Shown one piece after another: positions 20,688 to 23,592 of a stretch of 32,000 bases of DNA. The stretch comes from Pyrodictium abyssi (GTDB taxonomy: Archaea; Thermoproteota; Thermoprotei_A; Sulfolobales; Pyrodictiaceae). Position numbers and translations under genes: made by a program. The stretch is from positions 60,001-92,000 of the forward strand of contig NZ_AP028907.1 in assembly GCF_036323395.1 (NCBI RefSeq), read 5' to 3'. Positions within the stretch are counted from its first letter, which is position 1; each line of letters begins with the position of its first letter. The notes below the pieces were generated by a model. It did not search any database, had not been told where the DNA came from, and saw nothing but the letters and a program-made list of their open reading frames with translations.

Positions 20688-20933
20688 CCGGGAACAGCAC
20701 CGAAGAGAGCATTGAAGAGGACCCGCTACAGCTCCATAGTGCACTACAGCCGGGAGGAGAAGGCGGACACGGGGGTAGGGGGCCCGCAGCAGAAGCTAGC
20801 TAGAAGCCCCGGAGAACGCCCAGAGCCATCATACACCGAGCTCGCACCCGGCAGCCGTATTACCGACAGCCACAGGGTAGTGGGTAGTGTGCCACGTGAT
20901 AGCGGCCTAGACAATCCGGTTAGGGGCCGGGCA

Positions 20934-21287
20934 ATGCCGCAGATGAAGGCTTGCCTGGTCTGCCACGTGCCCTTCTACGCCGCGTTCGCCCTATTCGTGT
21001 ACATCGGCGCCAGTCATGCCCTAGAAGGGCAAGCCCAGCTAGCCGCTTTCTACCTCGCGAGCCTCTTCGCTACACTGGGGTCCGGGTACGCCTGCTGTAG
21101 ACGCTTCGGCGCAGACCGCCTTCCGCCAGCCGCTAGCGTGCTACGGGCCGTGTGGCCTGCGATCGCCGCACCCATAATACCCATCGGGGCAGCCATGTTG
21201 TGCTCTAAACAACTCGGGCCGGAACCAGCACTATGCCGTCTCCGACCCAAACTCGTTCTTCTACGCCGCGCTGCTAGTATACGCTAA
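20934..21287 (+). CDS. possible small membrane protein (117 aa from the ATG at 20934)
   Basis: Hydrophobic segments follow MPQMKACLVCHVPFYAAFALFVYIGA. The longer TTG-initiated ORF from 20712 has a polar, non-descript N-terminus. No family recognised. Confidence 0.3.
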   Translation: MPQMKACLVCHVPFYAAFALFVYIGASHALEGQAQLAAFYLASLFATLGSGYACCRRFGADRLPPAASVLRAVWPAIAAPIIPIGAAMLCSKQLGPEPALCRLRPKLVLLRRAASIR

Positions 21288-21406
21288 CGGAAAACTCCTC
21301 TACCGGATGTGCCCGGTCTGCACGAACCAAGCCATGCACAAGCATCAACCGTAGCACTTGAGGGTCCTCATTAGCGCTGTGCAGCAGGAGCTAGCCACTG
21401 CAGCGG

Positions 21407-21980
21407 CTAGAGCTGCTCCCGGAGCCTGGCTAGTGCCTCCTCGTGCTCCCGGGCCCACTTTCCTTCACGCTCTAGTCTGGGCTTAACCCTCTCCTCGATA
21501 ATCCCCACTAGTATCCTGGCTAAGCGCAGTATATCGCCCGCTGCTTCCTCGCGGCCCCGGTACTTCGATAGCTCGGCGTCGGGGTCCGGGCCGTGGTACT
21601 GGCAGTCGTGGAGATCGAGCGCGGTGCTTGTGAAGTGAGTGTAGTAGGTGTACCCGGAGTCCTCAACGAGGCTGCTAATAGCCTTCAGCCTGCTACTAGG
21701 CACTCGGGGTACTGCCTTCTCCGTGAACCATTTCCTCTGTTCCCCGCTGAGCCTCCCGAGTATCTTGTCCCTCTCTAGGGCAAGTATCGCAGCTGTTAGT
21801 GCCCTCCATGCCTGGTAACGCCTTCCCTGCAGCATTCCTCGTTAACCCTTCCTCGAGAAACCTTAGCGCCAGTAGGGCCTCGAGCGGTGCCTCAAGGATG
21901 CGGGCGGCAGCATAGCCTACGGGGTCTTTCCTCGGCTTTGGCAGCGGCCGGTCGACAGCTACAGTCTCCCTCGCCCACAA
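21407..21980 (-). pseudogene. PaREP1-family gene (copy 2) split by a +1 frameshift near 21816
   Basis: ORF 21696-21980 encodes the N-terminus (...PLPKPRKDPVGYAAARILEAPLEALLALRFLEEGLTRNAAGKA). ORF 21407-21835 in another frame encodes the rest (YQAWRALTAAILALERD...LHDCQYHGPDP...). Copy 1 reads GCGTTCCAGGCGTGG where copy 2 reads GCGTTACCAGGCATGG, i.e. one extra base. Confidence 0.7.
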
Positions 21981-22176
21981 GCCTTTACCCGTGCACAGAG
22001 TTATAGCTGCTCATGCATCGCCGGGCTTCATTGCCATTCCATAACGGTGTAAGTGTACGCACGGAAGTATTCCACGCAGTTATGCCAGCTCTGCCACGGC
22101 TGGCAACCACGCCTACAAGGCTCGCAGTACTCTAGTAGTCCTAAGGAGCTGCGCTGTCGGCAAAGCACCAATGGGG

Positions 22177-23592
22177 CTACTCTCGGCGCCTATCGTCCCG
22201 CCGGCCCGTCGGGGCCACACTCTGGGGCTGCGCTGGGACCGCTGCCGGGGGCTGCTGCGGCTGCCCTGTCGCCGGAGCCGGCGCTGGCCATGCCTGAACC
22301 GGCGGCTGGACTGGGACCGGGGGCTGGCCCTGGTAGGGCGGCTGAGGCGCCGCGTACGGGTATGGAGCGGGCTGCCACTGCTGCGGCTGCTGCACCGGGG
22401 CCGCGTAGTAGGCCTGGTACGGCTGCTGGGCCAGCGGCTGGACAGGGGGCTGCGGGTGTAGCGGCTGCTGGCCTGCCTGGTAGGCTGGCTGCTGGACAGG
22501 CTGGATGCCCGCCCCGGGTTGCTGACCCGGGGCCTGCTGTGGCCAGGCCTGGTAGCCGAGCCACTGCACCTGGCTGGGCTGCTGGACCGCTGGCGCCGGC
22601 GGCTGCACGGGGGGCTGCTGTGGCTGGGGCGGGGTGTAGGCCGGCGGCGCTGGTGGCTGCTCCTGCCGTGTCGTGGGCGGCTGTGCTGCGAAGGCGCGCT
22701 GGTAGGCTGCGCGTATGTCCTCGTCTAGTAGGTGGAGGTAGATCTGCGTCACCTTGATGTCGTGGTGGCCGAGGAGCCTCTGCACCACGGGGAGCGGGAC
22801 GCCGCGGCGGAGCGCCTCTGTGGCGAACGTGTGGCGGAGCACGTGGGGCCGGACACGGCGCGGGTCCAGGCCAGCACGGCGGGCCAGGGTCTTGAGCCTC
22901 TTGTAGAGCCCGCTGTAGCTTATACCGAGCAGGGAGTCGTCTGGGCCGAGCCCCGGGTTGACGGCCAGCCATATCGCCAGCGCCTGCTCGGTCAAGGGCC
23001 CGTAGAGGACTACCCGCTCCTCGCCGTACTTGGCGTTCCTTACGCGTATCTCGCGCCGCCTAGTGTCTATGTCGCGTAGCCGTAGCCCTACCGCCTCCTG
23101 GGCGCGGAGCCCCGTCTCGAAGAGCAGCGCGACTATCAGCAGGTCTAGGGGGTCGCGCGCAGCCGATACCAGCCGCTCGACCTCCTCAGGCCTTAGGGCC
23201 TCGACCCGCGGGCTCCGGGGCTTACGCACCACCGGGACCTTCACGCCTAGGCCGAGCCACTCTAGGAACCCGCGGAGGAACAGCGTGTAGTAGTGCATCG
23301 TGGTCTGCCGCTCCCTCCTCTCCTCCGCGGGGTCGCTGTCACGGCTCCGGGGCCTCTGGAGCCCGCGGGTCAGCCGGTCGTATATCCAGGCGGAGACGTC
23401 GCTGCTCGTTACCTCGCGGAGCGGCTTGCCCCCTATGAACGAGAGGAAGTCGCTTATCGCCGCCCGGTACGCCTTCACGGTCTTAGGGCTAGCGCCAGCA
23501 GCGGCCAGCGCCGCAAGGAACGCCTCCATAGCCTCCCTGTTGCCCCGCTCCAGGATCCCCGGCGGTGGCGGCGGCAGGTCGAACCGCGTCAC
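22177..23592 (-). CDS. xerA: tyrosine recombinase, XerA/XerC/D-like integrase, with a ~169-aa Pro/Gln-rich C-terminal extension
   Basis: SAM-like N-domain (SPKTVKAYRAAISDFLSF). Catalytic residues ETGLR (R163), NAKYG (K188), HVLRHTFAT (H250, R253), LGHHD and VTQIY (Y285). GTG start with a TATA-like ATATAG ~20-25 nt upstream. Confidence 0.85.
   Translation of the reverse strand: MTRFDLPPPPPGILERGNREAMEAFLAALAAAGASPKTVKAYRAAISDFLSFIGGKPLREVTSSDVSAWIYDRLTRGLQRPRSRDSDPAEERRERQTTMHYYTLFLRGFLEWLGLGVKVPVVRKPRSPRVEALRPEEVERLVSAARDPLDLLIVALLFETGLRAQEAVGLRLRDIDTRRREIRVRNAKYGEERVVLYGPLTEQALAIWLAVNPGLGPDDSLLGISYSGLYKRLKTLARRAGLDPRRVRPHVLRHTFATEALRRGVPLPVVQRLLGHHDIKVTQIYLHLLDEDIRAAYQRAFAAQPPTTRQEQPPAPPAYTPPQPQQPPVQPPAPAVQQPSQVQWLGYQAWPQQAPGQQPGAGIQPVQQPAYQAGQQPLHPQPPVQPLAQQPYQAYYAAPVQQPQQWQPAPYPYAAPQPPYQGQPPVPVQPPVQAWPAPAPATGQPQQPPAAVPAQPQSVAPTGRRDDRRRE
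22180..22686 (-). other. low-complexity Pro/Gln/Ala/Tyr/Trp-rich tail-coding region of the recombinase gene
   Basis: Residues ~303-471: AQPPTTRQEQPPAPPAYTPPQPQQPPVQPPAPAVQQPSQVQWLGYQAWPQQAPGQQPG...PVQPPVQAWPAPAPATGQPQQPP..., ending GRRDDRRRE. The DNA is a degenerate CAGCAGCC/GGCTGCTG-type repeat that also creates long spurious ORFs in other frames. Confidence 0.8.

Follow-up and report, generated by a model that had tools for sequence, protein, structure and literature searches.

The archaeal XerA recombinases of Pyrococcus abyssi (4A8E), T. acidophilum (5HXY) and S. solfataricus (Xer, SSO0375) are encoded by single chromosomal genes and share two domains, the R-K-H-R-H-Y catalytic set and a helix termed alphaN. 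In Pyrococcus abyssi XerA, alphaN forms the extreme C-terminus and packs in cis in the apo-dimer; it is proposed to swap in trans, which would assemble the active site and stabilize the tetramer, and recombination is impaired when it is deleted (PMC3646895). Archaea have no FtsK, and what sets the timing and location of their Xer recombination is not settled (PMC3020120, PMC8371274). Here we describe the xerA gene of Pyrodictium abyssi, located in a 32,000-nt stretch of the genome (assembly GCF_036323395.1, contig NZ_AP028907.1, positions 60,001 to 92,000; hereafter the window). The encoded protein has all the features shared by the three enzymes, but, whereas the characterized archaeal XerA proteins stop at alphaN (PMC3646895), it continues for a further 170 residues that are predicted to be disordered. 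Judged from sequence comparison, what the Pyrodictiaceae XerA clade has kept throughout is the type of this extension and not its sequence. We propose that the chromosomal XerA carries a conserved two-part extension, an uncharged spacer followed by a charged tip, that would act as a flexible tether, and we give this reading as a whole roughly even odds (about 0.5).

The whole enzyme is contained in the well-folded residues 1-301, and the extension comprises residues 302-471. The Pfam profile Phage_integrase (PF00589) matches residues 132-290 with an E value of 1.3e-30, and the two profiles of the SAM-like N-domain, PF13495 and PF02899, both exceed their gathering cut-offs; the open reading frame (ORF) 22177-23592 thus combines a SAM-like N-terminal domain with a Phage_integrase domain. 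The NCBIfam family recomb_XerA_Arch (NF040815) is the best match by far, with 205-207 bits over all 263 model positions. This score falls below the curated equivalog cut-off of 220 bits, which a clade-mate from another genus (G007) clears with 228.6 bits. A 48-sequence alignment (A1) shows no variation at R163, K188, H250, R253, H276 and Y285. The catalytic tyrosine is Y285 (codon 22738-22740), within the motif IYLH at 22732-22743, as the initial annotation had placed it; the charged end GRRDDRRRE that it had noted was likewise located (Table 1). Alignment of the solved XerA chains 5hxy and 4a8e covers only residues 19-300, where both chains end, in agreement with the size of about 280-300 aa that the same annotation had given for XerA. 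With the 48-sequence alignment as input, AlphaFold2 (AF2) predicts a confident fold for residues 1-301, with a predicted local distance difference test (pLDDT) score mostly above 90 and a final helix at residues 290-301, and the score drops to 72 at residues 81-90 of the N-terminal domain. We note that the charged loop at residues ~75-97 (window ~23302-23370) is common to P/Q-tailed XerA and to ribbon-bearing XerA with long linkers (see below), and is shorter or absent in tail-less XerA. The complete genome contains one XerA match, and the product of the ORF is a XerA-type tyrosine recombinase, the sole chromosomal one of this genome.

The tail that follows this ordinary core is unlike the rest of the proteome in composition. 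The span 22180-22686 marked in the initial annotation encodes residues 303-471, matching its count of 169 aa. The tail contains 28.6% Pro, 25.0% Gln, 14.3% Ala and 7.8% Tyr plus Trp, with no Cys, compared with 5.9% Pro and 2.2% Gln in the long ORFs of this genome. When all 2.22 Mb of the complete genome were scanned in six frames, the tail stood out as the strongest P+Q tract by far, with 146 qualifying 50-aa windows; the runner-up has 47 and looks like an off-frame ORF. The scarcity of Gln-rich tracts, stated in the initial annotation, thus holds for this genome, where the long ORFs contain little Gln and the tail is the sole strong P/Q tract. The sole other plausible genuine P/Q tract lies outside the window (C1:760918-762150, forward strand), in a frame of 411 aa that is first P/Q/T/A-rich and then Thr-rich, more like an extracellular linker. 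The tail DNA has a G+C content of 76%, compared with 59% for the genome. A tandem-repeat origin was considered and rejected, as neither Tandem Repeats Finder (TRF) nor a repeat search of the tail detected a regular array: TRF gave one weak period-13 match at the tail/core boundary (22679-22712), and the repeat search gave degenerate repeats only (66-83%). All listed spacings between these repeats are multiples of three but one (79 nt), the exception using a copy at 22145-22156 beyond the coding sequence, and such spacing in threes fits a low-complexity coding sequence. AF2 models residues 302-471 as coil with pLDDT values of 35-60 and predicts no contact between tail and core, and a protein atlas search with the tail returned no fold match (template-modeling score at most 0.26) and no usable feature match.

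On comparative grounds, the tail is almost certainly real, translated in the xerA frame and conserved in its lineage. The comparison of orthologs for length and tail, suggested by the initial annotation, found the tail in related Pyrodictiaceae: P/Q tails are present in 15 of 17 family-level loci from whole genomes, with a length, taken from the catalytic YxH motif onward, of 63-184 aa. Database homologs named Pyrodictium delaneyi (469 aa), Hyperthermus butylicus (406 aa) and Pyrolobus fumarii (433 aa) carry a P/Q/aromatic tail beyond the catalytic tyrosine, and dozens of metagenomic proteins extend in the same manner. In the alignment of the tail DNA with that of the nearest genome (L002, 86% identity), the gaps are of 3, 6 and 15 nt only, the best-kept stretches are 22531-22557, 22321-22398 and the terminal peptide, and the stop position is common to both, with similarity collapsing right beyond it. 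Differences between the two tails fall at codon positions 1, 2 and 3 in the numbers 21, 41 and 63, and the ratio of nonsynonymous to synonymous substitution rates (dN/dS) is 0.27 for the tail and 0.046 for the core. An independent pair from another genus (L005/L009) gives 0.44 and 0.08, respectively. From these values, the tail evolves about five times faster than the core and yet is under purifying selection in frame. The in-frame indels, the third-position bias, the shared stop and the independence of the assemblies exclude read-through, frameshift and misassembly as far as the comparison reaches, and the alternative put forward in the initial annotation, that a lost stop had led to read-through into repeat DNA, is refuted by the tailed orthologs, the indels, the stop and the selection on the tail. 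Two other frames are open over the tail, at 22053-22757 on the forward strand (234 aa) and at 22190-22972 on the reverse strand (260 aa). Both are rich in Ala, Gly, Pro and Arg, with no independent sign of coding, and because the substitutions follow the xerA frame we take them to be by-products of the G+C-rich composition. For two relatives, L012 (G018) and L013 (G014), the genome search flagged in-match stops (TGA/TAA), whereas ORF extraction gave intact P/Q-tailed frames of 419 and 473 aa; in view of these open frames, the stops probably come from alignment overrunning the gene end.

In an unrooted maximum-likelihood tree, the core domains of 120 XerA proteins fall into two clades. The clade of 48 proteins (Shimodaira-Hasegawa-like approximate likelihood ratio test, SH-aLRT, 98) contains 44 P/Q tails, 3 short forms and 1 other, and the clade of 72 contains 48 zinc-ribbon forms, 22 tail-less forms and 2 others. 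In the 48 relatives with a ribbon, a fixed 10-residue spacer separates the two Cys pairs of the consensus CPxCGxxxPxxARFCPYC, and the ribbon is joined to the core by linkers of 2-132 aa; those of at least 40 aa are almost uncharged and contain 16% Pro and 16% Gln. By family, the sampled genomes include four families without a tail, five with ribbons and two with other disordered, basic-ended tails, and the family of the window is the one with the P/Q tail. Inside the P/Q clade, L015 and L018 (genus g8) have no P/Q spacer and end in a basic-then-acidic sequence about 14-17 residues past alphaN, as if the tip alone had been kept.

The anatomy of the tail was compared in the 44 P/Q-type relatives (among proteins P0001-P0058), which as kin are not independent samples. 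The body of the tail, 47-168 aa in length, is nearly devoid of charge (Asp 0.2%, Glu 0.4%, Lys 0.1% and Arg 0.6%), compared with about 23% charged residues in the proteome, whereas the last 15 residues are about 33% charged, with 17% Arg, and include at least two Lys or Arg in 43 of the 44. The ribbon is missing from all of them. Pro is the next residue after Gln in 353 of 885 cases, where composition predicts 257, a difference whose z-value is inflated by kinship; Gln-Gly, Gln-Ser, Gln-Thr and Gln-Val are depleted, and Asn amounts to 0.9%, unlike the 7.6% Asn of the ribbon-type linkers. A proline following a residue blocks deamidation through the cyclic imide, and the Gln-Pro enrichment together with the near absence of Asn may be a signature of chemical stability for a Gln-rich chain near 100 °C. 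The motif PPxY occurs in 17 of the 44 tails, which is unsurprising at such a composition. An ending 'E..[ATSV]' at the extreme C-terminus, considered as a feature common to the tail classes, was dropped: it is found in 56% of short forms, 32% of P/Q forms and 21% of ribbon forms, compared with 8.5% of long ORFs, but the signal is weak, comes from related proteins and is missing in the genus of the window.

Table 1. Features of the Pyrodictium abyssi xerA gene in the window (positions from the first letter of the window)
Feature	Position	Strand	Description	Basis
xerA gene	22177..23592	-	471 codons, GTG start, TAG stop at 22177-22179	ORF list and translation
SAM-like DNA-binding domain	23257..23529	-	N-terminal, residues ~22-112, including charged loop ~75-97	Pfam PF13495/PF02899; AF2 helices 18-112
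Catalytic domain	22723..23199	-	Residues 132-290	Pfam match; invariant residues; matches to solved XerA/XerD chains
alphaN helix region	22690..22731	-	Residues 288-301, last folded element, tail directly after	AF2 helix 290-301
Tail body	22225..22689	-	Residues 302-456, uncharged P/Q/A/Y/W low-complexity spacer, predicted disordered	Composition; AF2; DNA alignment with L002
C-terminal tip	22180..22224	-	Last 15 residues, charged core GRRDDRRRE at 22180-22206	Charge pattern in relatives; L002 alignment

On the evidence of gene order and phylogeny, xerA is a vertically inherited chromosomal gene. A GNAT-ABC or NDT-like gene adjoins xerA in the related loci L002, L003, L006 and L007 and stands slightly more distant in the window, acs lies on the other side of xerA in L002 and L003, as in the window, and the core tree agrees with the family groupings. 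An integrase of an integrated mobile element of the SSV or pNOB8 type was considered and set aside, as at least one flanking gene is shared with each of these four loci, from which the variable patch next to xerA is missing. Single copy and conserved synteny thus argue that xerA is no relic of a mobile element. The patch itself (20688-22176), which separates the NDT-like gene from the stop codon of xerA, holds a small doubtful ORF and a frameshifted copy of PaREP1. The related genomes lack it: in them, xerA and the NDT-like or GNAT-ABC gene are convergent immediate neighbors, and the patch therefore looks like a genome-specific insertion.

Since the tail starts right after alphaN, the helix matching alphaN of Pyrococcus abyssi XerA, it hangs from the switch element of the enzyme. 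We propose that the uncharged spacer is a flexible tether extending from this helix and that the terminal piece is a small putative binding module, a basic tip in the window XerA and a zinc ribbon in the sister lineages. Contacts with nucleic acid or protein are commonly made by Arg-rich peptides and by zinc ribbons alike, and the terminal module could make a second contact of low specificity with DNA or a partner. Through this contact the enzyme would stay on the nucleoid or close to the partner, and the tether would widen the capture radius for dif or for a second dif-bound dimer; the tail might also modulate the exchange of alphaN. Taken by itself, this tether mechanism is a tentative proposal whose chances we put a little short of even. 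A bolder version, in which the C-terminal module of crenarchaeal XerA (uncharged P/Q tether plus basic tip or zinc ribbon) stands in for FtsK-type control, either linking the resolution of dimers to the machinery of segregation or division or nucleating a dif-centered assembly, by means of a disordered Gln-rich chain adapted to about 100 °C, is speculative and we consider it doubtful.

Several observations weigh against the tether. In the tip, a pattern of charge but no sequence motif is conserved, and in many genera basic and acidic residues are mixed; the tail varies widely in both length (47-168 aa) and sequence, and it is absent in some members of the clade and in whole sister families. 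A homology search with the tail alone found four Pyrodictium XerA orthologs and no other protein family. The tether suggested in the initial annotation, for example to the division or segregation machinery, survives as an idea and is strengthened by the pairing of an uncharged spacer with a charged tip or zinc ribbon, but none of the MIM2, PIP, PTAP and YPxL motifs sought in the 44 tails is conserved, and the absence of the first three counts against it. A genome scan for dif, modeled on the T. kodakarensis site, gave no convincing site, the top candidate not being kept in five relatives. Moreover, tail-less XerA of Sulfolobus and Pyrococcus recombines dif unaided in vitro (PMC3020120, PMC2958812). 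This full activity of tail-less XerA in other archaea, together with the rapid turnover of tail length and sequence, a dN/dS 5-6 times the core value, repeated loss of the tail (g8, P0044) and the conservation of composition alone, would sit well with a tolerated low-complexity expansion, that is, a tail that is translated but has no specific role, is slippage-prone in its GC-rich DNA, drifts in length and is under weak selection to be harmless (soluble, uncharged and non-aggregating). Against mere tolerance, almost all genera of this deep, family-level clade have kept the tail, two independent pairs give dN/dS values well below 1, and charge is almost excluded from the body relative to the proteome, yet the charged tip is found in 43 of 44 relatives. 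In addition, the tract is the sole one of its kind in the genome, which argues against a general genomic tendency, and the sister clades have a comparable linker with a folded ribbon. We regard an expansion without a role as unlikely, though it deserves a place in the reckoning.

The attachment point of the tail would also suit an entropic or autoinhibitory regulator, in which a bulky chain on alphaN hinders the cis-to-trans swap and tetramer formation, so that recombination waits for DNA or a cell-cycle factor to bind the tip. Such a regulator would be a built-in substitute for FtsK in archaea that lack it (PMC8371274), and the tail does begin at once after alphaN, the proposed switch for activation and synapsis (PMC3646895). 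This reasoning is purely positional, however; linkers of 2-168 aa would differ greatly in their entropic effect, and no tail-core contact appears in the AF2 model, so this alternative seems rather improbable to us. The uncharged, Q-rich composition with about 8-12% aromatic residues could instead make the tail a self-associating 'sticker-spacer' domain, the aromatics in the P/Q matrix driving XerA-XerA association or condensates that bring dif sites together, and similar SSB linkers promote cooperativity and phase separation (PMC7145534). Shuffled tails, however, space their aromatic residues no less evenly (mean z -0.15), a result that leaves the condensate idea of the initial annotation neither supported nor refuted, and the very high Pro content would be expected to disfavor cohesion; we give self-association little credence. 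The further open frames in the GC-rich region, and the pseudogene and doubtful small ORFs nearby, are what an artefact might leave behind, whether a frameshift, lost stop or misassembly that extends a normal 300-aa XerA into GC-rich non-coding DNA, or a decaying integrase of an integrated element. With the same architecture in many independent assemblies and complete genomes, frame-preserving indels, third-position bias and a shared stop, and with a single-copy gene whose neighborhood is conserved across genera and whose adjacent pseudogene patch is an insertion specific to its own genome, an artefact has next to no probability.

Tailed proteins of such lengths are already in public databases. 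In the available portions of the full-text literature, comprising an XerA review and primary papers, we found no description of a C-terminal extension or ribbon, and the modular, lineage-wide appendage on an ordinary enzyme seems undescribed. As a module that sits on the alphaN switch helix throughout a lineage, it offers a concrete experimental handle on Xer control without FtsK. The proteomes of hyperthermophiles avoid Gln and long disordered regions, to which about 170 residues with 25% Gln, maintained in organisms growing near 100 °C, form a striking exception. Having almost no Lys or Arg, the body of the tail would be missed by standard tryptic proteomics.

The zinc-ribbon XerA proteins of the same GTDB order, such as the protein named Desulfurococcus mucosus XerA (P0099), resemble the window XerA in the core, in having an extension after alphaN and in the near-uncharged, P/Q-rich character of their long linkers. 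They differ at the terminus: the ribbon proteins end in a four-Cys ribbon (Pfam zinc_ribbon_2/DZR), whereas the tail of the window XerA is Cys-free, contains no CxxC-x10-CxxC pattern and ends in an Arg-rich segment. Beyond XerA, the C-terminal linker and peptide of FtsZ and the Pro/Gln-rich linker of FtsK are architectural analogs of the tail, with no family membership. Bacterial single-stranded DNA-binding protein (SSB) is likewise similar in architecture only, a folded DNA-binding core being followed by a variable uncharged linker of P/Q/G type and a short charged tip (PMC7145534). In E. coli SSB, the disordered linker has 56 residues and the tip nine (PMC7145534), and the window-type bodies, less than 1.5% charged, 47-168 aa long and predicted to be coil, have the properties of an SSB-like linker. 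Fold and function of SSB are unrelated to those of XerA, and its tip is acidic, conserved in sequence and bound to known partners, whereas the window-type tip is basic or mixed and poorly conserved. A further analogy is the bacterial XerCD-FtsK system, in which Xer recombination is controlled in space by a tethered factor and a flexible P/Q-rich linker joins a catalytic to an anchoring module; in bacteria, however, linker and anchor belong to FtsK and not to the recombinase, and archaea are without FtsK (PMC8371274).

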